From assembly GCA_963793305.1 (NCBI GenBank), contig CAWBZV010000003.1, positions 480,001-544,000 of the forward strand: a stretch of DNA of 64,000 nucleotides, read 5' to 3'. The stretch is from an uncultured Gemmatimonadales bacterium. Its GTDB lineage: Bacteria; Gemmatimonadota; Gemmatimonadetes; Gemmatimonadales; Gemmatimonadaceae. The position numbers and the translations under genes are program-made. Shown piece after piece: positions 21,172 through 41,161 of this stretch. The notes under the pieces were generated by a model, which was given only the letters and a program-made list of their open reading frames with translations, was not told the origin of the DNA and did not search any database. The first letter of the stretch is position 1; every line of letters begins with the position of its first letter.

Positions 21172-21306
21172 GGCGGAATGAAGTCTATCGAGTCTGCCCT
21201 CCGCATCACGAGACTCACGGAGCGGATCTCAGACTCGCCTGCGATCGCACAATCTCGCCCATGCCGCTCGTGGGGTGCTCCCGTGAACTGGCCTAGCATT
21301 TCGCCC

Positions 21307-23461: not shown

Positions 23462-23523
23462 CGGCGCCCACTCGCCCATCGAGTCCCTGTTCCCGCACGG
23501 GCTAAGGCGATCGATTGCAGCCA

Positions 23524-24648
23524 ATGGCGTCCATAAGTCTGATCGCTGATCTCCTCAGAACCTGTGCCGATCGACTGCCGGCGGATAGCGAGCCGGATTT
23601 CGAGGAGGTGCGCTCCTCGATGGTCGCGAAATCCAACCTGCTGGCGCTCTATCGCCTCGCGGCGTTGTGTCGCAAACACGGTTATCTCGACCTGTGGCAT
23701 CTCGTCACCAGAAGTGCCCTCGCCATGCCGCATCACGCGTTCGAGCATCTGTACCATCGCGGCAACGCGAAGCTTCTGCTCGATGATTGGTCTGGTTGGG
23801 TCGATCGAGAAGTCCGAGTCCATGATCCCGCGGCTGGATACTTGGCATCCGAATACGTGCGCCAGATCCGCTACAAAACGATCGAATGGGATGGCCAAGA
23901 AATCATCGCAGACAAGACCATCTTGATTCTGGCTGACGGTGATTGTGGTGACTGCATTCAAATGCTCCGTTTCATACCACCACTGGTCGAGCGTTGCCGT
24001 GGTGTCATACTGAGCGTGCGGCCCGAGATGGCCTCATTGGTCAAGCATAACGTTGGCCATCTTGCCTCCATCACGTTCCATGGCATCGACTGCGGCCCTT
24101 TCGAGCGATATGCGTGGTTGATGTCACTGCCCGCTTTGTTCGGCTGTCTGCCGGTATTCACGCCAATGACAGCGCTCAGGCCCAGGACGAGGGCGACGAA
24201 TGCTCGTTACCCCGTCGACATTGGTGTGTGTTGGTCCGAGGGCGGTGATCGCTCAATCGCGCTCGATGAACTTGCGCCACTCTTCGGGCGTCGCGATTGG
24301 CGATGGCATAGCCTTCAACTGGCAGGCGCTGGTGAAGGCGATGGCGACTCCTTTCGCGGGTGTCCGGCGATTCGCCTGCGCACTCTCGCCGATGCCGCGA
24401 ACTACGTGATGGGACTGGACTGTGTCGTGAGTGTCGACGCGGCAGTCGCGCACCTCGCCGGCGCGCTGGGCCTGCCGACGTTGACATTGCTGCGCTCGTC
24501 GGCAGATGCGCGATGGGGGTTGAACGATACCACGCCGTGGTATCCGTCCATGCGGCTGATTCGTCAACGCGCCGCAGGGGATTGGCGAAGCGCCATCCAG
24601 GCACTGGGCGCCGGTATCGAGGCGATCGCGGTCGACCTCGCCGCCTAA
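23524..24648 (+). CDS. TPR/GT9-like glycosyltransferase paralog 5
   Basis: ADGDCGDCIQMLRF, VDAAVAHLAG, TPWYPSMRLIRQ. Confidence 0.8.
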   Translation: MASISLIADLLRTCADRLPADSEPDFEEVRSSMVAKSNLLALYRLAALCRKHGYLDLWHLVTRSALAMPHHAFEHLYHRGNAKLLLDDWSGWVDREVRVHDPAAGYLASEYVRQIRYKTIEWDGQEIIADKTILILADGDCGDCIQMLRFIPPLVERCRGVILSVRPEMASLVKHNVGHLASITFHGIDCGPFERYAWLMSLPALFGCLPVFTPMTALRPRTRATNARYPVDIGVCWSEGGDRSIALDELAPLFGRRDWRWHSLQLAGAGEGDGDSFRGCPAIRLRTLADAANYVMGLDCVVSVDAAVAHLAGALGLPTLTLLRSSADARWGLNDTTPWYPSMRLIRQRAAGDWRSAIQALGAGIEAIAVDLAA

Positions 24649-25787
24649 TGGGTATGCCATCCTCCGCTGGGGTCGTGGAATGGGTCGATGCATGCCGACA
24701 CACTTTCGCCGATCGCGCCGAGGCCTACCGAGTCGCGTTGTACGCGTCACTCGTGGATCCTCAGGGCGATACGCCAATACCTCTGTACCGCCTCGCGAAA
24801 GCCTGCCTGGATAGTGGAGAGTGGTTGCTGTGGCACCAGGGAGTCATGTTCGCGTTCACCCTTGAACACCGAACGGCTCAATCACTCTGCGAGCGAGCGC
24901 TCGCCAAGCTCAGGTTAGGCGACTGGTCCGCATGGCGCGACTATGAGGCTCATGCAAAAAGCCCCGCCTTCAGCGTCGCCCACGCAACGTGGCTTCGCTG
25001 GCGGTACCCGCTATGGGACGGTACCCAGGATATTCGGGATCAAACACTCCTCGTCCAACGGATGGGCGGCTATGGCAATGTGATCTGGTCGCTGCGGTTC
25101 ATTCCACCCATTGCAACACGCGTTCGCCGGCTCATCTGGGATACCAGTCCGGCGCTCATGGATTTTGTGCGATACAACATGAGCCATCTGGCCGCGGTGG
25201 AATCAGTCGATCGCGACCCGCCCGACTTGGACTTCGATTGGCATGTCTGGTGTATGTCGCTTCCGCACGTCAACGGCGGGATACCGCCGTTCGTTCCGCT
25301 CACGGCTCCAGATCCAATCCAATGGCCTCGCTCCCCTGAAAGGCGACTGCGAGTTGGTCTGTGCTGGGCATGCAGCGACGAGGCGCTCGATCAACTGGAG
25401 CGGTCCATTGCATTGAGTTTCTTGGCGCCGCTTTTTTGGCATCCGGGCGTGGAGTGGTACAACCTGCAGGTCGGATCGAGAGCGCACGATAGCGACTACT
25501 ATCCAGGCGTCAAGCAACCACCATTTCCGCTCCGCACATTTGTCGACACCGCGAATTTGCTGGTCGGGTTGGATTGCGTCATCTCGGTGGACACGGCTAT
25601 CTGTCATCTAGCGGGGAGTCTCGGCGTGCCAACGCTGACACTACTCCGCTGTACCGCTGATGCGAAGTGGGGGCATCTCGACACGACGCCTCTCTATCCC
25701 TCCATGCGCTTGATTCGTCAACGGACTCCGGGCGATTGGCTCGGGGTGGCCGAGACCGTGCGTGAGGAACTCAATGCCCGTCTCTGA
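24648..25787 (+). CDS. TPR/GT9-like glycosyltransferase paralog 6
   Basis: TAATG coupling; WDGTQDI, GGYGNVIWSLRF, VDTAICHLAG. Confidence 0.8.
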   Translation: MGMPSSAGVVEWVDACRHTFADRAEAYRVALYASLVDPQGDTPIPLYRLAKACLDSGEWLLWHQGVMFAFTLEHRTAQSLCERALAKLRLGDWSAWRDYEAHAKSPAFSVAHATWLRWRYPLWDGTQDIRDQTLLVQRMGGYGNVIWSLRFIPPIATRVRRLIWDTSPALMDFVRYNMSHLAAVESVDRDPPDLDFDWHVWCMSLPHVNGGIPPFVPLTAPDPIQWPRSPERRLRVGLCWACSDEALDQLERSIALSFLAPLFWHPGVEWYNLQVGSRAHDSDYYPGVKQPPFPLRTFVDTANLLVGLDCVISVDTAICHLAGSLGVPTLTLLRCTADAKWGHLDTTPLYPSMRLIRQRTPGDWLGVAETVREELNARL

Positions 25788-26697
25788 TCCGTACCGACTC
25801 TATCAAGTCGCCGAATCGCATCGAGAGTGCGGCGATGAGGAAAGTTGGAAAGAGATCGTGATGGACGCCTTTCAGCTCCCTCATCGGACCAAGCAACAAC
25901 TCTTCTATCGAGGCCAAGCGAAGATCGCGCTCGGTGATTGGTCTGGTTGGGTCGACCGCGAGGCGCGACTGTTCAACCCCGACGAACAATTGTGGCGTTG
26001 CTCGTACTGGCGCCAGGTACGGGCGAAGACGAAGGCTTGGGATGGCAAAGAGGATATCCGGGACAAGGCACTGTTCGTCATCGCCGATGGAGATGATGGC
26101 GATTGTCTGCAAATGCTCCGATTCATTCCGGATCTCACCGCGAAGGTCGACACGCTCATCCTCGGTGTCAGTCCTGCACTGCTGTCACTCGTGAAGCACT
26201 TTTTCGCCTCAAAGGTGACGGTGACGTTTCGAGAGGTCGATCACGGGCTGCCGTTCCAGCGGTATACATGGATCATGTCGTTACCAGCGCTCTGCGGCGC
26301 ACTTCCGCCGATCGTGCCATTCACCGCGCCCAGACCGCAATCGCCCCCTCGCCTGGCAGATGGGCGTTTTCACGTCGGCCTGTGGACAGCGCCAGAATCT
26401 GTTCCTCCTGCGACACTCGCCGGCATAACAAGCGCACTGGCACGTGACGACATCCAATGGCACGACCTGCGACTGGGCACCGGCGCCATCCGAACGTATG
26501 CTGATGCCGCGAACGTTATCGTGGGCCTGGACTACGTGGTGAGTATCGACTCGCCAATTGCCCATCTCGCGGGTTTGCTCGCGGTGCCGACGCTCGTGTT
26601 TCTCAGCTGCCGAGCTGATCTCCGGTGGGGATTGACCGAGACAACGCCATGGTATCCCTCGATGCACATCACCCGACACTTTGGAGACTCCGTATGA
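25774..26697 (+). CDS. TPR/GT9-like glycosyltransferase paralog 7
   Basis: WDGKEDI, ADGDDGDCLQMLRF, IDSPIAHLAG, TPWYPSMH. Confidence 0.75.
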   Translation: MPVSDPYRLYQVAESHRECGDEESWKEIVMDAFQLPHRTKQQLFYRGQAKIALGDWSGWVDREARLFNPDEQLWRCSYWRQVRAKTKAWDGKEDIRDKALFVIADGDDGDCLQMLRFIPDLTAKVDTLILGVSPALLSLVKHFFASKVTVTFREVDHGLPFQRYTWIMSLPALCGALPPIVPFTAPRPQSPPRLADGRFHVGLWTAPESVPPATLAGITSALARDDIQWHDLRLGTGAIRTYADAANVIVGLDYVVSIDSPIAHLAGLLAVPTLVFLSCRADLRWGLTETTPWYPSMHITRHFGDSV

Positions 26698-26822
26698 CAA
26701 CCGCGTATCGAAAGCCGACGATCCTCTGCCTTGGCGCCGCCGAGGTCTTGACTCGTGGAGGGTTCGGAAACAGGCCCGAACTCCGCACAGGTCCAACTAG
26801 CATCTCCCTGCTCGATCTCTGA
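26694..26822 (+). CDS. Lasso peptide precursor A0: MTTAYRKPTILCLGAAEVLTR|GGFGNRPELRTGPTSISLLDL
   Basis: GGAG RBS, ATGA overlap with the GT7 stop; Y-17/P-14/G-8/T-2 leader; core G1..E8; homologous to the 32.5-33.2 kb array. Confidence 0.88.
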   Translation: MTTAYRKPTILCLGAAEVLTRGGFGNRPELRTGPTSISLLDL

Positions 26823-26831
26823 GGCAGGTAC

Positions 26832-27992
26832 ATGCCATCGAGCGAACAGCTCCTCGATGAGTGTATTCGTCGGTTGAGTCCAAGCAATGCGGCGGCGCTA
26901 CTGCCACGGTTCCGATCGGCATTCGAGCGGTATCCCATCGCGCCGCCGCTCCTGTATAGCATCGCGACCCTGTGCCTGCAGTTCGGATACGAGGAGTTGT
27001 GGGAGCACTACGATCGTCTCGCCTTTGCCCTGCCTCACGCCACCAACGAGGATTTTTATTTTCGATCCGTGGCGAAGCTTCGTCGGAGCGACTGGTCCGG
27101 GTGGTTGGACCGAGAAGCCAGGCTCATCAGCCCGCATGAAGCGCCGATCTGGTACCCGCACTTCCTCGAAATGCAATGGACGACGCGCGCCTGGGACGGT
27201 GTAGAACCGATTCAGGATAAAACACTGTTGGCGATCGCCAATGGCGGGTTCGGCGACTGCTTGCAGATGATACGGTATATGCCGCGTCTGGCGGCAATAG
27301 CTGGTTCGCTCATCATCGCGGTGCGGCCGCAAATCCTCTCGTTGGTCGAGCACAATTTCGGGCGGATCGCCACGGTCGTGTCGACAGAGCGCTTACCATT
27401 GATACCCTTTCAGCGGTACGTGTGGATGATGTCCCTTCCCGCATTGATCGGATCCATACCGGCCTTCGACGCGCTCAGGACTCCCAGCGCGACTCCGGCC
27501 GCTCCGCGTGAGGGCCGGTTGCGAGTCGGTCTCAATTGGGCCGGCACTTCACATCATCCGAACGATCGCGACGACAACCTCCGCTCCATCACACTCGACG
27601 ACCTCTCACCGCTGCTGGAGCTCGAGTGGGTCACATGGTATAGCGTGCAAGTTGGGCGGTGGGCCTCCGACGCCGATCACAATGCCCGCATCGTGCAACC
27701 CTCGACGCCGATCCGAAGTTTTGAAGATTCCGCCAATCTCGTCGCTGCTCTAGACTGCGTCGTGACGATCGACACGGCGGTTGCGCATTTGGCCGGCAGC
27801 CTCAATGTACCAACGTTAGTACTCCTGACATGGCTGCCGGAATTTCGCTGGGGTCTCGTCAGCGAGCGTACGCCATGGTACCCAAGCCTTCTGTTGATCC
27901 GACAAACGTCGCCCGGCGACTGGCCTGGCGTGTTCGATCGAACCTTCCAGCATCTGCGGGCGCTTTATACCGGGGCAGCTGCTTCAGCGTAA
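26832..27992 (+). CDS. TPR/GT9-like glycosyltransferase paralog 8
   Basis: ANGGFGDCLQMIRY, RVGLNWAG, IDTAVAHLAG, TPWYPSLLLIRQ. Confidence 0.8.
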   Translation: MPSSEQLLDECIRRLSPSNAAALLPRFRSAFERYPIAPPLLYSIATLCLQFGYEELWEHYDRLAFALPHATNEDFYFRSVAKLRRSDWSGWLDREARLISPHEAPIWYPHFLEMQWTTRAWDGVEPIQDKTLLAIANGGFGDCLQMIRYMPRLAAIAGSLIIAVRPQILSLVEHNFGRIATVVSTERLPLIPFQRYVWMMSLPALIGSIPAFDALRTPSATPAAPREGRLRVGLNWAGTSHHPNDRDDNLRSITLDDLSPLLELEWVTWYSVQVGRWASDADHNARIVQPSTPIRSFEDSANLVAALDCVVTIDTAVAHLAGSLNVPTLVLLTWLPEFRWGLVSERTPWYPSLLLIRQTSPGDWPGVFDRTFQHLRALYTGAAASA

Positions 27993-29105
27993 GTCTCATC
28001 GAGCAGCGTATTCACCTGAGCGATCGAGCTCGACCAGTCGCCTGGTGCGCATTGCCGAATGAGCCGCATCGCGGGATACCACGGCGTGACGTCCCCTAGT
28101 CCCCACCGCCAGTGGGAATCGTATTGCAAGAGCAGCCATGTTGGAACGCCGAGATTCCCCGCCAGAATGACACACTGAGGTGTCCACGCTGACCACGTAG
28201 TCCAGTTCCGTGATCAGGTCCGCCGTGTCGCCGTAAGTGACGAGTGGCGGATCAGGATTGATCAATGCGGGGTAATCGTTGGCGTCCGCGACGCGATCGC
28301 CGACTTGGAGGCTGTACCATTCCACGTCATCTCGTGCGAGCAACGGCACCGTCTCGGCGATAGGCATTGACCGATCTGGATCCTGCGTGAAGTCGGGACT
28401 GCCGGCCCAGCAGACGCCGGCCCGGATGGGTCGCGTCCGTGGCGGCATTTTGGGACGCCGTCGTGGTGCGGCAAGCGCGGTGAAATCGGGAAGCCGGCCG
28501 AACGTACCTGGCAGCGACATGCTCCACACATACCGGTCGAACGGTATCGTGGGTTTGATCCCATCCAGCCATATTTTGGCGAGTGAGCCGAAGTTGAATC
28601 GAGCGAGAGGGGCCAATCGCGGATACACCATCATGAAGACGGCGCTGGCTATTTCGGTCAACGGCGGAATGAATCGCCACATCTGGAGGCAATCGCCGTA
28701 TCCCTGCTCCGGCAGCACCAGGATAGACTTGTCCGCGAGATCCTCCTTGCCGTCCCACATGCAATGCTTCCAGCAGATATCTCGATATTTGTCCAGATCT
28801 TCGATGGTGTCCGGCGCCCCCAGGCGCGCGCTGTACTCAGCCCATCCGTTCCACTCGCCGCGCTCGATCTTGGCCAGGGCGCGCGCGTAGGTCTGTTGTG
28901 GTGTCACGTGGGGTAGCGCCAGCGCGAGATCGACCTGGTGCTGCCAATCGGGATCGCCTCGCCGTCGAAGCGTGAACGCGAGGAGATAGCGCGGCATGGG
29001 GTTGGCCGGCTGCTGCTCGGCGACGGTTGTCAATTCTTCCGCCGTATAAATGGTGCGGGGGCAACGTCGGTGTGTCGGCACCGGTTCGGAGGTCGGCGCC
29101 GTCAT
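27965..29105 (-). CDS. TPR/GT9-like glycosyltransferase paralog 9 (frameshift at about 28167)
   Basis: Best-conserved EQGYGDCLQMWRF; GVCWAGSP; VDTSVCH then HWRWGL..TPWYPAMRLIRQ in the adjacent frame. Confidence 0.8.
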
Positions 29106-29449
29106 GGTTCGGCGTGACCAGAGGCGACGTTGGGCTCGGTTTCCAGCAATCCGTATTCGCTGAGCGCGGTGACGATCGTCAACACATCGCGTTGCACTTG
29201 CCCCGGCGCGACATCCACGGGCATGGCGTATTCGGCTTCGATCGTCGCGACGATTGATCGTATCGTCGCGCCGCCTTCCAGCAATTCCCAAATGCGGCTG
29301 CCAATGTCATTGAGCCGGTAATTTGCGTGAGTTTGAAGATTGTGAACCACGGTATCGGTATCACCTGGCGCGGCCACCGCATATGCGGAAACCGTGACAC
29401 CGCTGTTGATATCGAGTCGTGCGCGTGTCGTACCTTCAAGCTCGCTCAT
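29102..29449 (-). CDS. PqqD-family RRE coupled to GT paralog 9
   Basis: NYRLNDIGSRIWELLE...IVATIEAEY..DVLTIVTALSEYGLL; ATGA overlap with the GT gene. Confidence 0.8.
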   Translation of the reverse strand: MSELEGTTRARLDINSGVTVSAYAVAAPGDTDTVVHNLQTHANYRLNDIGSRIWELLEGGATIRSIVATIEAEYAMPVDVAPGQVQRDVLTIVTALSEYGLLETEPNVASGHAEP

Positions 29450-29787
29450 GGTCGCGTCCTCGATGCCCGGGTGTGCGAATTGGTGCTCGGCATTCACGCG
29501 ACAGATTCTAAGAGTCACGGGCGAGACGCCTGAACCCCGCCCACAGGCGAATCACTTCCGCCGCTGGCGGATTCGGTGATCGACGCATTGGCGTGTGCCC
29601 CACCTGCCCGGCATCGCAGTCATTTGCTGATTCCAGCACGTCAGTGTTACGCGACGACGTATCACACTGATGGCACGCGACATAGGCGCTGCATCCGCCG
29701 CATATCTCAGCAACCCGCCTTCCAAGCGCTGGGTCTCGTGTTCCAGGCCCCGTAGAGTGTTTCTGCGTACACACGCGGAGTCGCCCA

Positions 29788-30099
29788 GTGTTGTTCACCC
29801 AGCGACCCCAACCAGTGTCTCCGACGGACGCGCGGCGATATCGCGCGATCCCTGGAGTGCTGTCGGGGTGCTTTGAGGAAGAAACCTTCCTGTTGAGTCT
29901 CGCGACAGGTCGGTACTACAAGCTCGACAACGTCGGAACTGAGGTGTGGCAGCTGCTGCGCCAACCGAAGGCGTTTCCCGACATCGTGAGCGACTTGGGG
30001 CAGGTCTATGACATCGCTCCGTCGACGCTAGCGGCGGATGTCGCTGAGCTCATGAACCGCCTCCTTGGCTACAGGGTCATCGAGGTCATCAACTCATGA
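29788..30099 (+). CDS. Lasso peptide B1 protein (RRE, PqqD family)
   Basis: LLSLATGRYYKLDNVGTEVWQLL...YDI...LAADV; directly upstream of B2 and C. Confidence 0.9.
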   Translation: MLFTQRPQPVSPTDARRYRAIPGVLSGCFEEETFLLSLATGRYYKLDNVGTEVWQLLRQPKAFPDIVSDLGQVYDIAPSTLAADVAELMNRLLGYRVIEVINS

Positions 30100-30479
30100 C
30101 ACTACCGAGTGTGATGCACTGTTTCGGACGAATGCTGGCCATAAAAGTGTCGCTCAAAACTCGCGGCTTGGGCGCGACGCTCTCGCGGTACTGCCAATCG
30201 CCGACGGACGTTCGTCGCGACGACTCGATCAGCGATGACCTCGTCGACCAAGTGGCGTTTCAGGTCGCCGGCGCCGCCGCGCTGTTTCCGGGGCGCGCCC
30301 TCTGTCTCGAGCAAACGCTCGTACTGCATGGAGAGTTGCTGCGCATCGGTGTCGACTCTCGGATCCGGTTCGCTGTCACGCCGTATCCATTCAAAGCGCA
30401 CGCGTGGATCGAAGTGCGAGGTCGTCCGATCAATGAGAATCTGCATTGGCTCAGCCAGATGACACTTCTCGAGACTTAA
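30096..30479 (+). CDS. Lasso peptide B2 leader peptidase (transglutaminase-like)
   Basis: ALCLEQTL (catalytic Cys) and PFKAHAWIE (His) motifs. Confidence 0.9.
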   Translation: MTLPSVMHCFGRMLAIKVSLKTRGLGATLSRYCQSPTDVRRDDSISDDLVDQVAFQVAGAAALFPGRALCLEQTLVLHGELLRIGVDSRIRFAVTPYPFKAHAWIEVRGRPINENLHWLSQMTLLET

Positions 30480-30484
30480 TCACC

Positions 30485-32299
30485 GTGGATACCTTCGTCT
30501 GCCTGATGAATACGCGTGGCCACGGTGTCGTCCCCGAGTCACGTCGGCGGTACGGGCTCGATGACACCGGCTGGCAGTCAGCTGGACCATGCAGCATGTA
30601 TGTCTCAAATGATGGATACGGTCCCGTGGCATCGATCTATCGCGGATCGATTGGCATCGCCGCAGGCATCATCCGCCTCGACAACCGCGTCGAGATCCGG
30701 CGCCAACTTCGGGCAAGCGACGACCAGTCCGATATCGCGTTGGTCGCCGCCGTGCTGCATCGCCGAGGCGTCGACGGCGTGCAGGAGCTCGTGGGCGATT
30801 TTGCGCTGGCGTATTGGGACGTTGCGCGGTCGGAATTGATCATCGCGCGGGACTTCATCGGAGTTCGCCCGCTTTATCGCGTACAGGACGGTGATCTGTG
30901 GGGGTTCGCCTCCCACGCGGGCGTTCTTGGCCGGGGACGGGAGCTGTCGCTCGAATTCGTCGCGGACTACATCGCGTTCAATGTGTCGAGACAGCGCACA
31001 CCATATGCCGGCGTGTTTGCCGTCCCTGCCGGAACCGCCCAGGTGCTCAACGGTCGGCGGAGCACCGAGCATCGGTATTGGTCCGCCTATCGGTTCTCGA
31101 CCGATGATCGGATCGACAGCAACGAGGCGGTCGAAGCGTTCAGGCCTTTATTCACCGAAGCGATTCGGCTGCGTCTGACCGGAAAGCAGGACTGCTGGGC
31201 AGATCTCTCTGGTGGTCTCGATTCGTCATCGGTTGTCTCGATGAGTCAGTGGCTCGCGAAGCACGACGGCGCCGTGCACGGCTTGGCGGGAACCTTGACG
31301 TACGCAGACACGCTCGGCACTGGCGACGAGCGGCCGTACGCGAACGCGGTGATTCGCGATTGGCCTCTGCCGAATGAACAATTGATCGACTACGGATTGT
31401 GGCAGGACGACGGCGAGCCGCCCCTTGTCGCGGATATTCCGGACCAGTCGTCCGCGTCGTACGCTCGAGAGCGGCGAGTCTGTCGGATCGTTCGGTCAGC
31501 GGGCGGCCGCGTGCTATTCACCGGAGTGGGCCCCGATCAAATGCTCTTCGGCAACTATGTGTATTTCGCTGATTGGCTCGTGCGGGGGCGAATTCGCGAG
31601 GCGGCTCGGGGGATGTTTCGACTCGCCGCGCTGGGCAGAGGGTCATTCTGGAAATTCGCGTATGAGAACGCCATCAGGCCGTTCTTTGGATCGCCGGCGC
31701 TGAAACGTGAAGCGTGGCCGGCATGGGTTCGGCCCGAGTTCGCACGTCGATTCGCGATCCACGAACGCAATCCAATGGCGTGGACCCCTCGCGGCCGACC
31801 GGGCCGCTACTTTGCCACGGACCTTGCGGGCAACATCGACATCATCACACATGCGATGATCCGCGGCGTGGTCGGTGATATGCTCGACATCCGGAGTCCC
31901 TTCCTGCATCGCCCGCTGGTCGAGCTCTGTCTGCAACTCTCTCCGCAGGTGCTGGCGAGGCCGCGGGACCAGAAGTGGGTCCTCCGCCAAGCGATGCGAG
32001 GCATCACGCCGGAAGAGGTGCTGGAGAGAAGGACGAAGGGGTTCGTCGACGCGAGAATGCAACGATCGTTTGTCGATGAGCACGATCGACTGAATGTGTT
32101 GCTGGATCATTCGGTACTCGCCGAAATGGGTTGCATTGACGCGCGGCTCGCCAAACAATCATTGGCGAACGTGAAGAGCACGACCCTGGGCGAGAATGGG
32201 CGATTACGACATGCACTGACGCTTGAGACGTGGTTGACGGCGAGATCGGGCCGATGGATCGCACGTGATGTGGCACGGCCGGCGTCTGCGGTGGCATGA
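30485..32299 (+). CDS. Lasso cyclase (asparagine synthetase-like, C protein)
   Basis: GDFALAYWD, ARDFIGVRPLY, DLSGGLDSSSV, RSPFLHRPLVE, KWVLRQAM; no N-terminal catalytic Cys. Confidence 0.92.
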   Translation: MDTFVCLMNTRGHGVVPESRRRYGLDDTGWQSAGPCSMYVSNDGYGPVASIYRGSIGIAAGIIRLDNRVEIRRQLRASDDQSDIALVAAVLHRRGVDGVQELVGDFALAYWDVARSELIIARDFIGVRPLYRVQDGDLWGFASHAGVLGRGRELSLEFVADYIAFNVSRQRTPYAGVFAVPAGTAQVLNGRRSTEHRYWSAYRFSTDDRIDSNEAVEAFRPLFTEAIRLRLTGKQDCWADLSGGLDSSSVVSMSQWLAKHDGAVHGLAGTLTYADTLGTGDERPYANAVIRDWPLPNEQLIDYGLWQDDGEPPLVADIPDQSSASYARERRVCRIVRSAGGRVLFTGVGPDQMLFGNYVYFADWLVRGRIREAARGMFRLAALGRGSFWKFAYENAIRPFFGSPALKREAWPAWVRPEFARRFAIHERNPMAWTPRGRPGRYFATDLAGNIDIITHAMIRGVVGDMLDIRSPFLHRPLVELCLQLSPQVLARPRDQKWVLRQAMRGITPEEVLERRTKGFVDARMQRSFVDEHDRLNVLLDHSVLAEMGCIDARLAKQSLANVKSTTLGENGRLRHALTLETWLTARSGRWIARDVARPASAVA

Positions 32300-32488
32300 A
32301 CGTGGGTCACCATGGGTGCTCGGGTCGCAACAAAGAGTGGTGCGTAGTGCCGATAACCGGGACTGGTCACTAGGCTCATCCTAGGCAAAGTCCGTCGTGG
32401 CTCGCCGGTATCGCGTACGAGACCGCGGATGTGTTCTGATAAGCGCTCTTACAAAATCCGCTCGACGTTCGCTCAACAGGAGAAGACA

Positions 32489-32620
32489 ATGGCCAAGACC
32501 TATCGCACACCGAGTGTTGTGACACTTGGTAACGCCGAAGTTCTGACGACCGGCTCCCCGAAGGGGAACCACGCCGAGGTGAGGACTGGCTCGACCTCGA
32601 TCACCATGCTGGACCTCTAA
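32489..32620 (+). CDS. Lasso precursor A1: MAKTYRTPSVVTLGNAEVLTT|GSPKGNHAEVRTGSTSITMLDL
   Basis: AGGAG RBS; canonical leader; core G1..E9. Confidence 0.92.
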   Translation: MAKTYRTPSVVTLGNAEVLTTGSPKGNHAEVRTGSTSITMLDL

Positions 32621-32647
32621 CCACTTCTTGACTTAACGGAGACTACA

Positions 32648-32782
32648 ATGACCAAGACCTATCGCACGCCCAGTGTCGTGACACTTGGTAACGCCGAAGT
32701 GTTGACGACCGGCGCACCGAAGCCGTGGAATCACGCCGAGGTGAAGACTGGCTCGACCTCGATCACGTTGCTCGACCTCTAA
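32648..32782 (+). CDS. Lasso precursor A2: MTKTYRTPSVVTLGNAEVLTT|GAPKPWNHAEVKTGSTSITLLDL
   Basis: GGAG RBS; manual translation; leader near-identical to A1; Glu at core position 10. Confidence 0.92.
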   Translation: MTKTYRTPSVVTLGNAEVLTTGAPKPWNHAEVKTGSTSITLLDL

Positions 32783-32899
32783 GAACTTCACCGCAATGCT
32801 CGTAGCACGGCACTAGTGAGACACTGGCGACCATTGGCCCGATCTCCAGCGTTCTCATCGCCCCGACCCCGATCGCGTTCCTGAATCCTTAGCTACTTC

Positions 32900-33028
32900 T
32901 TGACCTTTCGCCCGCCGAGCGCCGTGACACTTGGTAGCGCCGCAGTACTGACGACCGGCATCAACAAGCCGTGGAACGCGAACGAGCCACACGTCGGCTC
33001 GACCTCGATCACCTTGCTCGACCTCTAA
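32900..33028 (+). CDS. Lasso precursor A3 (TTG start, possibly silent): (M)TFRPPSAVTLGSAAVLTT|GINKPWNANEPHVGSTSITLLDL
   Basis: Manual translation; in-frame stop at 32882 upstream; no RBS; Tyr-17 replaced by Phe. Confidence 0.7.
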   Translation: MTFRPPSAVTLGSAAVLTTGINKPWNANEPHVGSTSITLLDL

Positions 33029-33036
33029 GTACCACC

Positions 33037-33169
33037 GTGACCAAGATCTATCGCACACCGCGCGTCATCGCGCTTGGACCCGCCGATCAGCTGACGACTG
33101 GTCTCGTATGCTCGTCCAATAGATACGAGACCATCGGCTCGAACGTCCATCGCGTTGCTCGATCTCTGA
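33037..33169 (+). CDS. Lasso precursor A4 (1-nt insertion at 33142/3): MTKIYRTPRVIALGPADQLTT|GLVCSSNRYETIGSTSIALLDL
   Basis: GTG start; deleting one A from tcgAacgtcc restores STSIALLDL-TGA, ending flush against the convergent peptidase stop. Confidence 0.78.
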
Positions 33170-35314
33170 CTACCGCTTCTCCGCCTCTCCCGCGCGTAAG
33201 TAGGTGTCGAACCACGCCAAGCGTCGTCGCCACACATCGCGAACGTTCGCGGGAGATGTGATGGCGTGACCCTCTCCCCAGTACCGCACGAACTCGACAC
33301 GTTTCCCCTGGCGAGCGAGCGACGAGAACATCTCCTCCCCTTGTTGGATCGAAACGAAATCCATATCGCCCTGAACGATCATCACTGGCGTATCGATCCG
33401 ATCGACGTAGTTGATGGGATTGTTCCTCGCATAACGCAATGCATTCTCCCATGGCGGCCCACCCATTCGAGTCTGGCCTGATTCTCCACCGGGCAGGCCA
33501 CCAATCCAATCTCCAGTGGCGGCGTCTCGGTAACGGCGAAAGGTGGAGAAAGCACCGAATTCCGATATGAGGTCCGACGGAGCACACTCGGCGATGGCGG
33601 CTTTGAACCGATGGGTGAATTCGATGATCCCATACGTGCTATACCCGCCATAGCTACACCCTTCGATTCCAATCCGATCAGGATCGGCGTATCCCATCTC
33701 GATCGTCTTATCCACCGCGGGTAATACGCCCTTCGGCAGATCGATGAAATTGTCACCGGGCTGTGTCCTGTCGCCGACGAACGGCATGCTCGGATACAGG
33801 ACAAGATAGCCAGCACCCGTCCAGAGTGCGTCCTCCAGACTCGGGTTGGTATCCGCCGCGCTTTGTACGCTTCCGTCGTATACGATCGTCACCATGGGAT
33901 ACCGTCGGCCGGCGACGTATCCAACTGGCAGCTGGAGCGTTGCCGTTAACGAATCGCCCTCCATTCCAAGATATCGGAGCGCGATCTTTCGGCCACGATC
34001 GATTTGCTCGGCGCCAGCATTGAGCGTGAGCACGGTATCGCGCTCGTGCAGCACCAAGTCAACTCGACCATCCGGTCGTGCCTGAACTGCAAGCGGTAGC
34101 GGCTTCCGACCTTCGATCGCGGACGGCGTCGCCTCGATCGGCGTTAATACGGCGTCTCCGTGCGCGCTGATCCGATACCACCGGTCGTCCTTCGGCACAT
34201 TGCGCTGCACGTGAACCACTACGGATCGTCCATTGGTTGCCCACACGGGCCGCGCGGGCCCAAAGTTGAATATCTGACTTTCCATGCCGCCGACAACGGC
34301 GTCGAGTGAGCCGGTTGAATCGACCCCCACCCAACTCGGTGACGTGGCACGGTCGAGCGGGATAATCGCTATGCGAAACCCGGGAATGTATTCTCCATAG
34401 AGTGCGGACGTACCCTTCCACTCGGATATCGGCACGGGGACGACAATCGCAAGGGTATGACCGTCCGGAGACACGGCGCCGACGGACGGCCAGTAGTCCG
34501 GAACGTGCCGGTAGTCACCGATGGGAATGGGTGCGAGCGCGGTGCTCGTGTGCGACCTGACGTTGACCAGGGTGAGCTTCAAAGGCGCAAACGATAGCGG
34601 CGGCGCGCCCGGTCCCGCGTCGAGTACGCTGGCAGTCGATACCGTGCCACGTTCCTGCAGTGGCCAGGCGCGTTCGGTGATCCGCTGGGGTTCGGTCGTT
34701 TCGTGATACCACTCGCCGGTCGCGCCAGCAGGAAGCGCGGCGAAAATCAATGTGCTGTCGCTCAGCCACCGGCAGTGGGCGAACGTTGCGCCCTGGACGC
34801 CATCGTACAGCCCACGCTCGTATTGCGCCAACTGCAGCCTGACCTGCTGATCCACGCCTTGTTGCGTCGACAGTTCGAGCCGATCGCGCTGTCGGTCCCA
34901 GACATAGAGGTGAACGTTCTCCCCTCCCTTGCTGGAAAGCATCGCCAGTCGGCGGCCATCGGGCGACCAAACCGGATCCCAGTACCCACTGGCGTCGGAT
35001 TTACCTTGCGTGAGATTCCGGCGCACCTGTCCGGTCGAGGAGAATACCCACACGTCGGACCGCTCGTGCTCCATGCCGGTGTATCGCTCTCCTGGTGTCG
35101 CGGGTCGATCGATCGTGACCGCCACCCAAGCGCTATCTGGGGACGCGGTGACCTGTCGCGGAGCGGGAATCAGCGTGAGCAGATCATTGACCACTGCCGG
35201 TCGCTTGTTCGCGTGAGTGACATTGACAGAACGTGCGACGTGGTTTACTTGCGCTCGAGCCCAGCCCAAGACGAAGAATTGCAATGCGCACGCGAGGGTC
35301 ACCAATTTAAGCAT
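33170..35314 (-). CDS. Secreted S9-family peptidase, putative lasso isopeptidase
   Basis: Signal peptide; WSPDG propeller repeats; GCSYGG, VQGDMDFV, YWGEGH catalytic triad. Confidence 0.85.
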   Translation of the reverse strand: MLKLVTLACALQFFVLGWARAQVNHVARSVNVTHANKRPAVVNDLLTLIPAPRQVTASPDSAWVAVTIDRPATPGERYTGMEHERSDVWVFSSTGQVRRNLTQGKSDASGYWDPVWSPDGRRLAMLSSKGGENVHLYVWDRQRDRLELSTQQGVDQQVRLQLAQYERGLYDGVQGATFAHCRWLSDSTLIFAALPAGATGEWYHETTEPQRITERAWPLQERGTVSTASVLDAGPGAPPLSFAPLKLTLVNVRSHTSTALAPIPIGDYRHVPDYWPSVGAVSPDGHTLAIVVPVPISEWKGTSALYGEYIPGFRIAIIPLDRATSPSWVGVDSTGSLDAVVGGMESQIFNFGPARPVWATNGRSVVVHVQRNVPKDDRWYRISAHGDAVLTPIEATPSAIEGRKPLPLAVQARPDGRVDLVLHERDTVLTLNAGAEQIDRGRKIALRYLGMEGDSLTATLQLPVGYVAGRRYPMVTIVYDGSVQSAADTNPSLEDALWTGAGYLVLYPSMPFVGDRTQPGDNFIDLPKGVLPAVDKTIEMGYADPDRIGIEGCSYGGYSTYGIIEFTHRFKAAIAECAPSDLISEFGAFSTFRRYRDAATGDWIGGLPGGESGQTRMGGPPWENALRYARNNPINYVDRIDTPVMIVQGDMDFVSIQQGEEMFSSLARQGKRVEFVRYWGEGHAITSPANVRDVWRRRLAWFDTYLRAGEAEKR

Positions 35315-36593
35315 TTGAGTCAATGCACCCGTGGTAGTTCGGATTATACTGATCGCCAGCGACGGGAAAGACGACGCTCGAGCCGTACATGGCCGGGCCA
35401 CCCCGATAGGGTCCCATGGGGAACACCGAGTTCGCGCTCAGGCCGTACTGACGAACGAGACGACGCAAATCACCCTGGCGATGGCCCGTTCCGAACAACC
35501 AAAAAGCTCGCTCGCGGAACATGACGGACAGTTGCATGCTCGCCGACGCCGTGGTCGTCGAATCGGACGTGAGTGTGTCCATGGCCGGTGTTATCGCATT
35601 CTGCCGAAGCGAGTTCAAGATTCCCGACCACGTAGAGACTTGGCCGCCCTTGAGCGCCGCCTCCGCTATCAACAGCTGGGCTTCAATGCCGCTCGCCATG
35701 GTCAATGACGAGGCGCCGGTTGTCACCAACCCATCGGCGTACGTCGTGGTGCCAGAGCCCGAAACGGCGAGAATAGGGAGTCGTGGGTCGCCCGCGCTGA
35801 CGAACGGCAACCCATTCTCACCTTCGCGATCGGACACCGAAACGATCGGGTTCGCGATCGTATTGTTGTAGATCGCGTTGATGTCGGTCGCGCCATCCAA
35901 CTCGGCCGTGTAGACAAAGCCGAGCGACACGTTGGCGACGGCGGCGGCGGCGGCGGTGAAATCGCCGCTATCCGCATAGGCTCGCCCACGCAGAACGGCA
36001 ATCAAGGCGGCGATGGAATCACTGCCAGTCGTGGAGGTCGCCGCGGAATCCAGATCCTCGAGCGCCTGGGTGAGTAATTGCTGGCGGTTGAACACGGGAC
36101 CGTAGCTCGGCGTCGACCCGTCGACGATCGCGAGTGACACTCCAGAGCAGAGGTTCTCGGCAAACTCGAGCTCCACGGCCGCGCTCAGCGCGCGCAATTC
36201 GCCAATGTGCCACACTGGCTCTGGGGCATACTGGCGCAGCGTGGCAATAGCCGCGAGCGCGTTGACTCGCCCACTGCTCAAGTTACCGAACGGGAACCCC
36301 CCGGGATTGCCGAGCGATAAGACCCGCTGATCTTCAGGGAGATTGCCGACTTCTGATTGGGTCGCGACGGTGAACTCGTCAGCCAAAAGGCCGGTGTGGA
36401 ACGACTGGGACGAGAACGCGTTGAAGAGTGTACCCAGCGCACCCGCCCTGAGAGCGGCGGCGCCCGACGCGTTTTGAAGACCACCCTGTGTGATGACCGA
36501 GGGGTCTTGTACGCGGGTTAGGTCGCAAGCGGTAGTCGAGACGAGCAATGCCGGTAGAAAAGCCGCCGCGATTGCGCGCACGAATCGAATCAT
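35307..36593 (-). CDS. SusD/RagB-like lipoprotein
   Basis: Lipobox TTAC, GLLADE, EAQLLIAEA, FRERAFWLFGTGHRQGDLRR. Confidence 0.8.
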   Translation of the reverse strand: MIRFVRAIAAAFLPALLVSTTACDLTRVQDPSVITQGGLQNASGAAALRAGALGTLFNAFSSQSFHTGLLADEFTVATQSEVGNLPEDQRVLSLGNPGGFPFGNLSSGRVNALAAIATLRQYAPEPVWHIGELRALSAAVELEFAENLCSGVSLAIVDGSTPSYGPVFNRQQLLTQALEDLDSAATSTTGSDSIAALIAVLRGRAYADSGDFTAAAAAVANVSLGFVYTAELDGATDINAIYNNTIANPIVSVSDREGENGLPFVSAGDPRLPILAVSGSGTTTYADGLVTTGASSLTMASGIEAQLLIAEAALKGGQVSTWSGILNSLRQNAITPAMDTLTSDSTTTASASMQLSVMFRERAFWLFGTGHRQGDLRRLVRQYGLSANSVFPMGPYRGGPAMYGSSVVFPVAGDQYNPNYHGCIDSNA

Positions 36594-36615
36594 GGCAGGA
36601 CACCTCACGAGTGAG

Positions 36616-39600
36616 TCAGAAGCTGAGATTGATGCGTGCGAGCCAATACTGGGCGGGCGGCAACCCTCCACCTGCGAAGTAGGTGTTGTTGACCGGCCCG
36701 GATGGGCTAGGTGCCGTTTCGGGATCGCCGCCGTTGAAGTGACTCCAAATGGCGATGTTGCGGGCCGACAAGGTCACGCTCATCGATCGCGCCCTGAACG
36801 CTCGCGCCACCGCGTCCGGAGCCGCATACGTGAGAGAGAGCTCGCGGAACCGAATAAATGCTCCGTCCGAGATGACACCGCGATTGGTAAACGCGGTGCC
36901 ATTGTACGCGACACACACTGCTTGGTCGGCGAGCGACGCCTGCCTGCTCACGGTCGCGAACGCGGTGCCCAGGGCGCATTGTGCAGCGAGCGCTTGGTTC
37001 GGAATGACGAATTGCCCACGATAGTCGAAGAGCGCGCCCACCCGAACGCGATTGCCGAATAGCCCGACATGCGTTCCAGCCGTGACCTGAACCGGCGGTA
37101 TGGTGGGCCCATAAAAGCGCTCACCGCTGGCGATCGTGAGTTCATTCGGCTCGATAATTCCATTCCCATTCGCGTCGCGGTACGTGTACGGCTGGGCGAA
37201 CATCGAATAGATGGGGTATCCGGCCACGATACTTGGGGCGCCACCCTGGCCATAGATCGGCTGAAAGTATGGGCCCAACGTCACCACTTGATTGTGGTTG
37301 ACCGACCCATTGAGGCTCACGTCCCAGGACAGCGGGCGCGTATCCAGCATGACCGCGGAGAGCTGCGCCTCGTATCCCCAATTGAGGACGGTCCCCACAT
37401 TCTCCAGAATGGAGGCCACGCTGCCCAGCGACGATCCGAGCGGGGCATTGTACAAGGCGTTGACGTTCCGCTTCCGGTAGTACGTGAATTCCATGTGCAC
37501 GCGGCTATCCGCCATGTCGAGATCGGCGCCCGCCTCGAGCTCCTTCTGTCGCTCGGGTTGCACGTGAGGGTTCGCGAGTGATGACAACGTCATTCCGGGT
37601 TGCAGCGCGCCGTCAATCGTAACGGGCACGGACGAATACGTCGTCAGCACTTGGCCGGGTTGCGTCCCGGACTCGCCGTATGCTGCCCGGAGTCGAAGGA
37701 GGCTGAGCCAGCTCGGATGTGGGAAGAAATGCTCGCGAGAGATCAGCCACGATACGCTGCCCTTGGGATAGGCGGCCGACCTGAAATCGTGGCCGAAGTC
37801 ATTCGCGCCGTCAACGCGAACCGCGCCGGTCAAGAACAACCGGTCATCCCACGCGAACTCCTCCTCGGCATACACCCCAGCCACCACGCCCTCGCTGTCG
37901 ACCTGCGCGCCCTGCGATACGCCGCCGCCAACAAAGCTCGAACCCGTGGTCAAGTTCGACGCCGTTGCGGTCGCGGTCTTCGTCTCCGCGCGATGATATT
38001 GTGCGCCGACTGATGTGTTGGACACCAAGGACGAAAACAGCGGCGCCCGCGCCGTGCCGCCAACGTCAACGCTGTAAATGTTCGTTGTTCCCCGAGCATC
38101 GATGATGTTTCCGCCATTGACGAAGGTGATCGGAGCGGCGGCGGGGGGAATGAACTGGGAGAAGCCGCTTGCCGACTCGTCAATGCCCGCGGTGAGGCGT
38201 CCGGTAAACCATGAGGTCGGCAGCCAATGCGCTGTGCCCGACCCAGTGAAATGCTGGTTGGTCTCATTCTCGATGGATCCGAAGAATGAGCCTGGGGTCG
38301 CGCCGAAAAGCCAATCGGCGGACGGATCCCGATATCCCACACCACCGGCCCAATTCTGAATCGCGCCGCTATAGGGGATGGATCCGGATTCCGATAGGTA
38401 GCTGCCCGAGACGGAGACATCGCCACTGCGTCCGAGAGGCGCAGAGAGATTCACGCGCCCGTCGTATTTGCTTATGCCATTCGGGTGGCGCACGTTGCCG
38501 GCGCCGGCGGCTGGACCGACCAACGAGTCCAGTGTGTGTTGGTCGTATGCGTCATCCTTTAGATACCCGATCTCGGACGTGTAATTGCCGGATACGAAGT
38601 ACCGAATGTTGGAACCACCGCCAGAGACCTGCACACCGACGTCGGCTCGATTGCCAGTTCCAAGCGGAGTCAATCCGGGATCACGCAGCGGATTGAACTT
38701 GGTGATGCTGTCCTGGGTGCATGCCTGGGCGGCAATCGCGGCCAGCGTGCAGGAGTTGGTCACTTGACCAGCACTTTGACCCCAGCCGCTGTAGTTGTAC
38801 CCGAATTGATCCGGATCGATGGTCAACGCACCGCCTTCAACATGCATGCTCCACCGCGGTGCGCCCGAGACTCCTTGCTTGGTCGTGACGACAATAACGC
38901 CATTCGCCGCGTCCGTCCCGTACAGCGTAGCCGCCGACGGGCCTTTAACGATCTCGATGGATTGAATCTCATCCATTGATAAGTCATTGAACCGACCACT
39001 CGATTCTTCGTATCCGGCAGGGCCCGCGGTTGAGTTCGCGACGCGAACGCCATCGATGTACAACAGCGGCTGCACTGATAGCGTCAGGGATCCAGGCCCG
39101 CGGATGTAGATGTACGGAGATGCACCGGTCAGACCGCCGGGATTGATGACTTGCACACCCGGTGCGCGGGCGTTGATGATATCGCTCAACGACGTAACCG
39201 GAGTGTTTGGAACAATCGAATCAGCGTTGATCGTGGCAATCGTATTTCCGATCGTGCTCAGTCGCTGATTGCCCGTTACGGTTGTTACCACCTGATCGAG
39301 TACCGTGGGCACCGGCACCAGCGCGATGTCTCGCGTGTACACACCCGCCGATGGCGTTACCTGCACCGTGGTCACAGCGTATCCGAGTCGTCTGACGACC
39401 AGCGTGTACGTACCAGCCGTCAGGCCGTTGATTGTATATGCGCCGTCGGGTCCAGTGATGGCCCCCTTTCCGGCCACGCGGACCGTCGCATCGGTCACCG
39501 GTTTGTGGGTGGACGAATCCGAGATCGTGCCACGCACGACGACGGTGTCTCTCGATTGCGACCGAGCGGTGAGACGGTCGCGAGCAACGAGCGTTGCCTG

Positions 39601-39979
39601 ACCGTACGGAGCTATCTCGACATCGACATCCGCGTCGAGCAAGATCTGTGTAAGCGCCGCGGCGACGGTAATGTCCGATGCGTTCGAGCCTCACCGTGGC
39701 GCCGGCAGGGAGGATCGACGGCTTGTAGGTGAACCGCAGTGAGGTCTGTTCTTGGATCGCCGTCAACGCCTCGGGAATCGTGGCGTTGTGCAGACGAAGC
39801 ACAAGCCGCTCTCGCAGCGCCGCAAAACTTCCAGCTTCGGCACGTTCAATGTGGGTGCCGACAATCGCGTAGAATGCCGGTTCTCGTGAGGCCAGGTGTA
39901 GTGGCTGGGGCCCTTGCGCGCCCGCGCCGCTACAGAGAATGACTCCGACACTGATGCCGCAGACGACGCCGCGCATCAT
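36616..39979 (-). CDS. SusC/RagA-like TonB-dependent transporter with N-terminal signalling domain (frameshift at about 39690)
   Basis: IEIVKGPSAATLYGTDAANGVIVVTTK, LRLRAAYGESG, terminal Phe. Confidence 0.9.
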
Positions 39980-39982
39980 GCA

Positions 39983-40990
39983 TTACCTCCTGGAGACAAG
40001 AGTCACAGTTTGCCCTGAGCGGACGACGCTCGCATCGAGCGCCCGAGCGATGACATCGAGGGCTACGTCCGCTGGGATATCGCTAATCGTCACCGTCAGT
40101 CGATCGTCAGCGAGTTTCGCGCTGCCGAGATGCACATCGATGTCGTACCAACGGTCGAGCTCAGGGATGACCTCGCGCATCGGCGCGTTCACGAACGTGA
40201 GATTCCCCTGCGACCAGGCCAGGTATCGGTCGACCGCCACGCCTTGTGTGACTCGAGCGGCACCGGTCGAGTCGACGACACCAAGGGCGCCCCGCGTCAG
40301 AATGACGGGCTTGGTGCCCTGTATCGATACCGACCCGTCCGCGACGACGACGCGCACGGTTTTGTCATAGGCCCGCACATCGAACTGCGTGCCGATGTCC
40401 TCAACGGTCGTGCCGCTGGGAGCAGTGACACGAAACGGTTGCGTGGGATCATGCGTCACGCTGAACACCGCCTCGCCGCTGAGATAGATGTGCCGCCCCA
40501 CCGCAGCAACGCGGATTTCCGTTCCCGGGGCGAGAGTCACCCGTGTGCCGTCGCGCAATTCCACCGTCGCGCGCTCGCCGCGTGCCGTGACGTAGGTGGC
40601 GCGAATCGCGGGCGCCTCTGCGCGAGTGGTCGGCGACGGTCGCAGCGCATGCCACGAGGCGTATGCCGTCCCAGCGATGAGAAGCACCGCTGCCGCCCAA
40701 CCCACGAGCGGGCTCACTCCGCGCGATCTCGGCGTTGGTGGGATCAACGTTAGCGGTTCGTGACGGCGATCGACCCCGAGTCGCCCAGCCAAAGCGCGCC
40801 AGGCCTGATCGGTGTCCGCGGGCGCGTTTGCTTGGGACGAGGCGCGTCGTGAGGAGCGCATGACTTCGACAATCGCCGTCAACGTCGGAGATGCTTGGAT
40901 GCGTCGTCGCATCATCTCACGCTCGCCCGGCGTACCCTCGCCGCTGACATATCGATCGAGCGCTACCCAATCGATGTCGCCGTCCCTCAT
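39983..40990 (-). CDS. FecR-family anti-sigma factor
   Basis: LRDGTRVTLAPGT, LSGEAVFSVTHD, DIGTQFDV, LDRWYDI. Confidence 0.9.
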   Translation of the reverse strand: MRDGDIDWVALDRYVSGEGTPGEREMMRRRIQASPTLTAIVEVMRSSRRASSQANAPADTDQAWRALAGRLGVDRRHEPLTLIPPTPRSRGVSPLVGWAAAVLLIAGTAYASWHALRPSPTTRAEAPAIRATYVTARGERATVELRDGTRVTLAPGTEIRVAAVGRHIYLSGEAVFSVTHDPTQPFRVTAPSGTTVEDIGTQFDVRAYDKTVRVVVADGSVSIQGTKPVILTRGALGVVDSTGAARVTQGVAVDRYLAWSQGNLTFVNAPMREVIPELDRWYDIDVHLGSAKLADDRLTVTISDIPADVALDVIARALDASVVRSGQTVTLVSRR

Positions 40991-41161
40991 CAGGCGATCG
41001 CCCAGGGTGTCATGGCACAGCTACACGCGCCTCGCTCAAGTCCCGACCGCTGTAGCACTGGTGGTGCAGAAGTGTTGCCAAACACCAGTTGCTTTTTTCG
41101 CGGACGCGAAGTCGCACGGTCTTGACAGGCTGACGCGAATACGTCACCATGGGCGACACAC

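Follow-up and report, generated by a model that had tools for sequence, protein, structure and literature searches.

A tandem array of predicted lasso peptide precursors with ring spacings of nine and ten residues in an uncultured Gemmatimonadales bacterium

Results

Organization of the precursor array

We analysed a window of 64,000 nucleotides (nt) of DNA from an uncultured Gemmatimonadales bacterium (NCBI GenBank assembly GCA_963793305.1, contig CAWBZV010000003.1, positions 480,001 to 544,000 of the forward strand), and all coordinates given here are positions in this window. Four homologous small reading frames (A1 to A4) lie in tandem on the + strand at 32489-33169, directly after the genes of a lasso peptide maturation set (B1, B2 and C), and are predicted to encode lasso precursors. 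A relic of a further copy is present between A2 and A3, and a sixth precursor, A0, resides upstream. Lengths of the proteins are given in amino acids (aa).

26694..26822, + strand: A0, sixth and intact precursor of 42 aa; core GGFGNRPE, Gly1 to Glu8
29788..30099, + strand: B1, PqqD-like leader-binding protein (RRE) of 103 aa; Pfam PqqD E 7.7e-15
30096..30479, + strand: B2, transglutaminase-like lasso leader peptidase of 127 aa; its start overlaps the B1 stop
30446..32299, + strand: C, asparagine synthase-like lasso cyclase of 617 aa; Pfam Asn_synthase E 6e-30, plus GATase_7
32489..32620, + strand: A1, intact precursor of 43 aa; GGAG 5 nt before the ATG, Gly1 to Glu9
32648..32782, + strand: A2, intact precursor of 44 aa; GGAG before the ATG, Gly1 to Glu10
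32783..32893, + strand: relic, the fifth copy of the array; internal stop, tail remnant APTPIAFLNP*
32900..33028, + strand: A3, 5'-truncated precursor of 42 aa; start only at a TTG, no GGAG, Gly1 to Glu10, tail intact
33037..33169, + strand: A4, GTG start, Gly1 to Glu10; an extra base near 33146 shifts the tail

Homology among the four frames was evident from a tblastn search of the own genome with A2, which returned A2 itself (100% identity), A1 (88%, E 1.4e-18), A3 (71%, E 1.7e-12) and A4 (52% over residues 1-31, E 3e-3). A repeat search identified an 85-nt leader block in four copies and a 25-nt tail block in five copies, the fifth of which (32866-32890, 68% identical) is located between A2 and A3. 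The relic aligns with A2 at 70% identity over 108 columns, with a score reached by 7 of 500 shuffles. The initial annotation of this DNA had described four precursor genes downstream of the cyclase, with the cores GSPKGNHAE, GAPKPWNHAE, GINKPWNANE and GLVCSSNRYE. The four repeats and their cores were recovered exactly as described, directly after B1-B2-C; as genes, only A1 and A2 are intact, A3 being 5'-truncated and A4 frameshifted. The same annotation noted that A2 and A3 are absent from the list of open reading frames (ORFs) and that A1 and A4 are wrongly delimited in it. This agrees with our analysis, where A2 and A3 (44 and 42 aa) fall under the 60-aa listing limit, the 63-aa ORF listed for A1 begins at an upstream ATG, and the A4 frame is enclosed in an ORF of 96 aa. 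A1 is already present in the protein collection as a 43-aa protein. The deletion in A3, the +1 shift in A4, the relic and A0 did not appear in that annotation.

Nucleotide identities over leader, ring and tail are 90, 80 and 90% between A1 and A2, 75, 75 and 81% between A2 and A3, and 71, 48 and 63% between A1 and A4. The concentration of variation in the ring, as stated earlier, is no more than moderate. In A1 and A2 a GGAG lies 5-7 nt ahead of the ATG, and a GGAG-like site is found in only 5 of the 28 rough gene models of the window. A3 lacks 26 nt with respect to A2, namely the GGAG, the ATG and four codons, the deletion being placed between two GAC triplets. Because of this deletion the start region is lost, and A3 contains neither ATG nor GTG, the sole possible start being the TTG at 32900. 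A terminator scan of 29400-33400 found one terminator-like site, with no excess over shuffles.

The distance from the GTG (33037) to the TGA (33169) of A4 is 133 nt, which is no multiple of three. In its own frame A4 continues as GSNVHRVARSL... and is open up to 33261, extending into the gene of the convergent peptidase, and the family tail IALLDL* sits in the +1 frame. A contig of a soil DNA run (X5, 88% alike), read by eye, encodes N-K-Y-E-I-V-G-S-T-S before 33149 followed by IALLDL* in frame, and therefore an unbroken A4 is present in a related strain; two other DNA runs (X1 and X2, 100% alike) cover the array edges only. The break in A4 may be an assembly error or a recent decay. Single extra bases also break an ABC exporter (near 18394, - strand), a GT9-like gene (near 28165, - strand) and the cyclase of a third lasso cluster of this genome (L034, near 3952-3957), reflecting either an error-prone assembly or decay of these clusters. 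As judged from its copies, the array looks like a series of duplication, divergence and decay, in which the stages of birth, divergence and decay of precursor genes would be visible side by side.

Evidence for lasso precursors

B1, B2 and C have overlapping starts and stops and are located directly upstream of the array, with A1 beginning 189 nt past C. Several precursors with one leader type stand beside a single B1-B2-C set. B2 matches the NCBIfam model NF033537 (lasso_biosyn_B2) with 53.1 bits (cutoff 33) and Pfam Transglut_core3 with E 2.9e-17. Of 400 genomes sampled from the phylum, 16 contain homologues of the cyclase with 34-41% identity, and precursors follow them. A larger tally of cyclase matches (86 of 401 at E 1e-20) includes ordinary asparagine synthases and one unpublished genome (G012) on which no claim rests. 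A quick tree, taken as a hint only, places the window cyclase on a long branch among clusters with a spacing of eight residues.

Y-x-x-P is the leader motif of lasso precursors. The leaders of A0 to A4 share the spacing Y-17/P-14/G-8/T-2, with Y..P in A0, A1, A2 and A4 and F..P in A3. Thr is at -2 in all five, in a register set by G-8, P-14 and Y-17, and this spacing fixes the predicted cut before Gly. We used the leader pattern ([YFW]xxP, five residues, G, five residues, T, one residue) to scan the 16 related loci, the weaker cyclase loci L030-L032 and the own-genome loci L033 and L034. The scan yielded 25 frames, of which 2 are chance-like and 23 lie directly after a cyclase (L014-L031 and L033), and the leader spacing in the window is identical to that of these 23 cyclase-linked precursors. 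Thr at the penultimate leader position matters for lasso precursors, according to the excerpt available of PMC10368454.

The leader codons of A1 and A2 comprise 15 identical, 5 synonymous and 1 non-synonymous, and the tail codons of A0 and A1 comprise 2 identical, 7 synonymous and 4 non-synonymous. Such codon comparisons show, as far as can be read from the sequence, selection on the peptide in both leader and tail. The earlier reading of the repeats as lasso precursors is therefore well supported by the upstream B1, B2 and C genes, the leader spacing and the excess of synonymous changes. We consider it quite probable that the array encodes lasso precursors which would be cut after Thr-Thr and closed between Gly1 and Glu, with a 9-residue ring in A1 and likely a 10-residue ring in A2 to A4.

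Spacing of the ring acceptor

The position of the invariant Glu relative to Gly1 differs among the copies: it is 8 in A0, 9 in A1 and 10 in A2, A3 and A4. An acceptor Asp or Glu at positions 7-9 is present in A0 (E8) and A1 (E9), and is lacking in A2, A3 and A4, where E10 is the sole acidic residue in the first 12 core positions. Because this sole acidic residue at 10 is outside 7-9, processing of the A2 to A4 cores cannot be assumed. A small diversified library processed by one enzyme set, as proposed in the initial annotation, is possible.

Among the 23 cyclase-linked precursors, counting from position 7 onward, the first acidic residue occupies position 8 in 17 cases, position 9 in 4 and position 7 in 2. 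The 12 relatives of the precursors aligned below have spacings of 8 (two), 9 (seven) and 10 (three; P0009, P0011 and P0017), and no other acidic residue occurs in the first ten core positions of these last three.

Relatives of the peptide family

When 1.84 billion representative proteins were searched with a profile, 15 matches at E <=1e-3 were obtained, consisting of A0, one 2712-aa repeat protein, which we regard as a chance match, and 13 short proteins. Twelve of the short relatives are 42-49 aa in length and one is 82 aa, and all of them align end to end. Ten were looked up and are all metagenome singletons, annotated as hypothetical protein or unnamed. In an alignment of 16 rows (the four window peptides and 12 relatives), M1, P-14, L-9, G-8, T-2, one Glu, one tail Thr and the C-terminal L-D-L are invariant. 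On this alignment the peptide family is real but rare, and its Ser/Thr-rich tail ending in LDL is conserved. The possibility that the family is private to this genome was ruled out by the exhaustive profile search.

Other searches were less productive. A word-indexed search across 5.8 billion proteins retrieved nothing beyond A1 and A2 of the window; a search of 60 relatives gave 1 weak match, inside a 382-aa frame; a search of 400 genomes of the phylum gave 4 weak matches (E 0.002-0.009, in frames of 91-409 aa), which were taken as chance; and a search of 400 genomes of the same family gave none. Pattern scans of genome contigs and metagenome contigs produced no confirmed locus.

Seven contigs of a soil metatranscriptome (X3; Logan contigs, at most 90-95% alike) match 22000-41000. 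Five of them fall on the array (32255-32842, depth 7.6-15.8), and the remaining two are pieces of 218 nt (26161-26384) and 35 nt. A 593-nt contig from this sample carries two genes in succession. The first is A1-like; in the second, the leader matches 32475-32550, the tail matches 32747 onward and 37 other letters lie between them, for which a by-eye reading gives the ring GGVPPFNKAE, again with a spacing of 10.

Two tandem precursors occur in four of the related loci, L014, L016, L019 (one of them with a stop in the leader) and L020. The genome itself contains a second lasso cluster (L033, G000:C3:761500-769500) with genes for an S9 peptidase, B1, B2 and C. After these come three precursors in tandem that belong to another family; their rings are GSGGDTAD, GANGDTVD and GAGGATVD, and their tails are long and Ser/Thr-rich. 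In the precursors at L014, L015, L025 and L027, core position 1 is occupied by Met, His or Gln, and the shared C-terminus is G-F-G-L or G-F-Q-L; such first residues look unusual for lasso peptides.

A0 and the TPR/GT9-like genes

The sixth precursor, A0, was identified in the tblastn search with A2 (26694-26819, 57% identity, E 1e-6). It is located 5.7 kb upstream of the array and is wedged between two GT9-like genes: its ATG overlaps the stop of the upstream one, and the next begins 10 nt past its own stop. Its ring GGFGNRPE is close to GRFGNRPE of the L020 precursor, from a genome of another family. The surrounding genes are listed below.

21178..29291, six on the + strand and one on the - strand (27996-29291, frameshifted): seven TPR plus GT9-like paralogs, with A0 among them
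29102..29518, - strand: second PqqD-like protein
19776..20126, + strand: third PqqD-like protein

With two more copies at 2260-3244 and 16572-17705 (-), the window holds nine TPR plus GT9-like paralogs, and contig 2 carries a tenth. Identities among the paralogs are 34-43%. A profile of the paralogs matches TPR repeats at the N-termini (E 1.7e-9) and, weakly, heptosyltransferase I at the C-termini. The AlphaFold model of a GT9-like protein has a predicted local distance difference test score (pLDDT) of 79.4, and a phmmer search of the PDB with one GT9-like protein returned chance matches only. A search of 5 related genomes with lasso clusters did not find the paralogs. The TPR plus GT9-like genes could be peptide glycosyltransferases. 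Three PqqD-like (RRE) genes are present per single B2/C pair, and the two extra ones flank the GT9-like array.

Neighbouring peptidase, uptake and export genes

The remaining genes around the lasso genes are as follows.

13655..16716, - strand: TldD/PmbA metallopeptidase pair, at the edge of the cluster region
17775..19650, - strand: ABC exporter (permease plus ATPase), split by an extra base near 18394
20087..21171, - strand: two adjacent genes of 190 and 171 aa (the second Cys-rich), no Pfam or NCBIfam match
33170..35401, - strand: S9 serine peptidase of 743 aa, convergent on the array; Pfam Peptidase_S9, candidate lasso isopeptidase
35307..36671, - strand: SusD-like protein (weak); Pfam SusD_RagB E 0.0045, under the cutoff
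36616..39642, - strand: SusC/RagA-type TonB-dependent outer-membrane receptor; TIGR04056 376.9 bits (cutoff 368), Pfam Plug and TonB barrel
39983..40990, - strand: FecR-type anti-sigma factor; Pfam FecR and FecR_C
41162..41746, + strand: ECF sigma factor; Pfam Sigma70_r2 and r4_2

The S9 peptidase matches the NCBIfam AtxE2 family model (NF033523) with 86 bits, below the cutoff (400), and the alignment is confined to the C-terminal catalytic domain. In the PDB, AtxE2 is matched at E 8e-8 and is ranked below generic S9 peptidases. A homologue of the peptidase follows the precursors convergently in 9 of the 16 related loci, and another one lies upstream in the second lasso cluster of this genome. 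The S9 protein may act like an isopeptidase, but is not filed in the AtxE2 family. The S9, SusC-type (TonB receptor), FecR and ECF genes stand beside the lasso genes, in the placement of the isopeptidase-type clusters. The two unmatched genes separate the third PqqD gene from the GT9-like array.

Proposed pathway

A pathway can be proposed for the window cluster in which processing, export, uptake and glycosylation are all inferred from its genes. The PqqD-like B1 would bind the Y-x-x-P part of the leader and B2 would cut after T(-2)-x(-1). C would then adenylate the Glu side chain and join it to the amine of Gly1 around the tail, and the ABC transporter would export the product. Uptake and opening of the lasso, or its sensing, might fall to the S9 peptidase together with the SusC/SusD-type receptor and the FecR/ECF pair, in line with proposals for isopeptidase-type clusters. 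The ring types could have arisen by insertions, from an ancestral 8-residue type (as in A0) to 9 and then to 10 residues.

Discussion

Alternative readings of the array

Several observations weigh against reading the array as lasso precursors with rings of nine and ten residues. Two of the maturation proteins fall short of the specific family models, B1 scoring 50 bits against lasso_PqqD_Bac (cutoff 80) and C 173.6 bits against its best NCBIfam match, the lasso isopeptide-bond cyclase (cutoff 525). A sigma-70 scan of 29400-33400 returned 0 promoter-like sites, the fold of the spacer between C and A1 is ordinary (z = +0.59), and the X3 contigs give a weak hint of transcription, coming as they do from a relative and from an RNA library, which can hold DNA. 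The ten-residue spacing meets further difficulties. It is needed by 0 of the 23 cyclase-linked precursors, and two of the three copies that have it here (A3 and A4) are damaged in the assembly. A single cyclase would need to close 8-, 9- and 10-residue rings, and the excerpt of PMC13352647 states that a change of ring size by one residue usually cuts the yield strongly. Natural lasso rings have 7-9 residues in the excerpts of PMC8498205, PMC9266682 and bioRxiv 10.1101/2020.11.25.399105; these three and PMC13352647 mention, in the parts available, a 10-residue ring only as an engineered variant of fusilassin. No natural 10-residue lasso ring was found in the full-text literature searched. Given that A2 to A4 are processed at all, we put the chances of a predicted 10-residue ring at roughly even.

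Of the other explanations, it is extremely improbable that the repeats are non-coding DNA in which frames occur by chance. The shortness of the ORFs and the lack of any family model matching the precursors would fit it, but it is contradicted already by the excess of synonymous changes, by a GGAG plus ATG in each of A0 to A2, and by a peptide motif common to 13 metagenomic proteins and 23 cyclase-linked precursors. It is a more serious possibility, although we think it unlikely, that the 10-spaced A2 to A4 do not form 10-residue rings. B2 could cut after Thr-Gly and thereby give 9-residue rings starting from Ala, Ile or Leu, or these copies could be poor substrates or non-substrates which are decaying. 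The restriction of reported natural rings to 7-9 residues and the damage in A3 and A4 speak for this. A shifted cut would moreover retain Thr at -2, A1 to A4 having T-T-G (A0 has T-R-G), and first residues other than Gly are reported, one cyclase accepting almost any residue at position 1 according to the part of the literature available to us. However, the shifted cut breaks the Y-17/P-14/G-8 spacing that is fixed in the 23 related precursors, and in P0009, P0011 and P0017, which have T-L-G, T-F-G and T-S-A, a later cut leaves no Thr at -2. A2 is also intact with a strong GGAG, and the 10-spaced form recurs in relatives. The damage itself might be only apparent. If the extra base in A4 is an assembly error and A3 is translated from its TTG, all five full-length copies, A0 to A4, would be live and form a real five-member library, which we hold to be possible but doubtful. 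Assembly errors are suggested by the single extra bases which the ABC exporter, the GT9-like gene and the third-cluster cyclase also carry, and the codons at the A4 break still read G-S-T-S when one base is ignored, with synonymous codons unlike those of the relative. The core and tail of A3 are fully open and conserved, and with a GGAG-like site in just 5 of 28 gene models the lack of one is not disqualifying. Yet A3 has neither ATG nor GTG owing to a 26-nt deletion, which is no simple sequencing error, a TTG without a ribosome-binding site is a weak start, and positions 33140-33148 are uncovered by reads or contigs at 100% identity.

A further explanation concerns the tail. Its Ser/Thr-rich sequence could mark substrates of the TPR/GT9-like enzymes and the extra PqqD proteins, so that the product would be mainly glycosylated and the lasso optional. 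We regard this as quite unlikely, although A0 is translationally coupled to one GT9-like gene with another 10 nt later, the window holds nine paralogs with TPR N-termini and weakly heptosyltransferase-like C-termini, three PqqD proteins serve one B2/C set, a tail T and the C-terminal LDL are invariant, and a glycosylated lasso peptide is known (excerpt of PMC11912497). Against it, the GT9-like matches are near or under cutoffs, the paralogs did not turn up in the 5 related lasso-cluster genomes, and none of the genes was identified as a sugar-nucleotide gene. The reading of the array as lasso precursors closed between Gly1 and Glu can also be extended. The LDL-tailed family would then hold the first natural 10-residue lasso rings, one cyclase would close rings of 8, 9 and 10 residues, and the TPR/GT9-like enzymes would glycosylate the tail; this is a speculative proposal that is rather more likely to be wrong than right. 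If it is true, the sugars on the tail are perhaps the steric plug needed by a wider ring. A ring size of 7-9 is treated as a defining limit of lasso peptides, and genome-mining rules call cores by that limit; with a window of 7-9, such precursors would be cut wrongly or overlooked. The invariant Glu at 8, 9 and 10 in sister genes offers a natural test of the ring-size tolerance of a cyclase.

Comparison with known systems

Multi-precursor lasso clusters are well known (some are listed in the excerpt of PMC7549694), and because of this the tandem array itself is ordinary. The caulosegnin cluster, caulonodins, xanthomonins and astexin-2/-3 resemble the window in having tandem precursors beside one maturation set and mixed ring sizes, which for the window are predicted; for caulosegnins I-III of Caulobacter segnis, the part of PMC13352647 available describes one enzyme set making 8- and 9-residue rings. 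In contrast to the caulosegnin type, the window has the order B1-B2-C-A with a split B protein, predicted spacings of 8, 9 and 10, and two damaged copies plus a relic, and its leader and LDL tail belong to a separate, rare family.

The isopeptidase-type clusters (astexins with AtxE2, sphingopyxin with SpI-IsoP), known mainly from alpha-proteobacteria, combine a peptidase of the prolyl-oligopeptidase family (S9) with a TonB-dependent receptor and a sigma/anti-sigma pair, as given in the excerpt of PMC9266682. The window shares this architecture of S9 peptidase, TonB receptor and sigma/anti-sigma factors. Its S9 peptidase is only distantly AtxE2-like, however, its receptor is SusC-type with a SusD-like partner, no GntR gene is seen in the window and the ABC exporter is 13 kb off. 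With the window, the combination of lasso genes, peptidase and TonB receptor extends to a lineage with SusC/SusD-type uptake genes.

Davasins are Ser-glycosylated lasso peptides modified by the glycosyltransferase IgtG, according to the excerpt of PMC11912497. The likeness lies in a lasso cluster with a glycosyltransferase acting on Ser, for which the window enzymes are candidates only. In the window, unlike the davasin system, the paralogs are TPR plus GT9-like and present in seven to nine copies, and glycosylation is putative. The engineered 10-ring variants of fusilassin/fuscanodin, as far as the partial texts describe them, indicate that a lasso cyclase is able to close a 10-residue ring; fusilassin/fuscanodin is natively 9-ring, whereas the spacing of 10 in the window is naturally encoded and recurs in relatives. 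What is unusual in the window, as predicted from its genes, is that an invariant Glu is encoded at spacings of 8, 9 and 10 within a rare LDL-tailed family, of which one member is placed among TPR/GT9-like genes.

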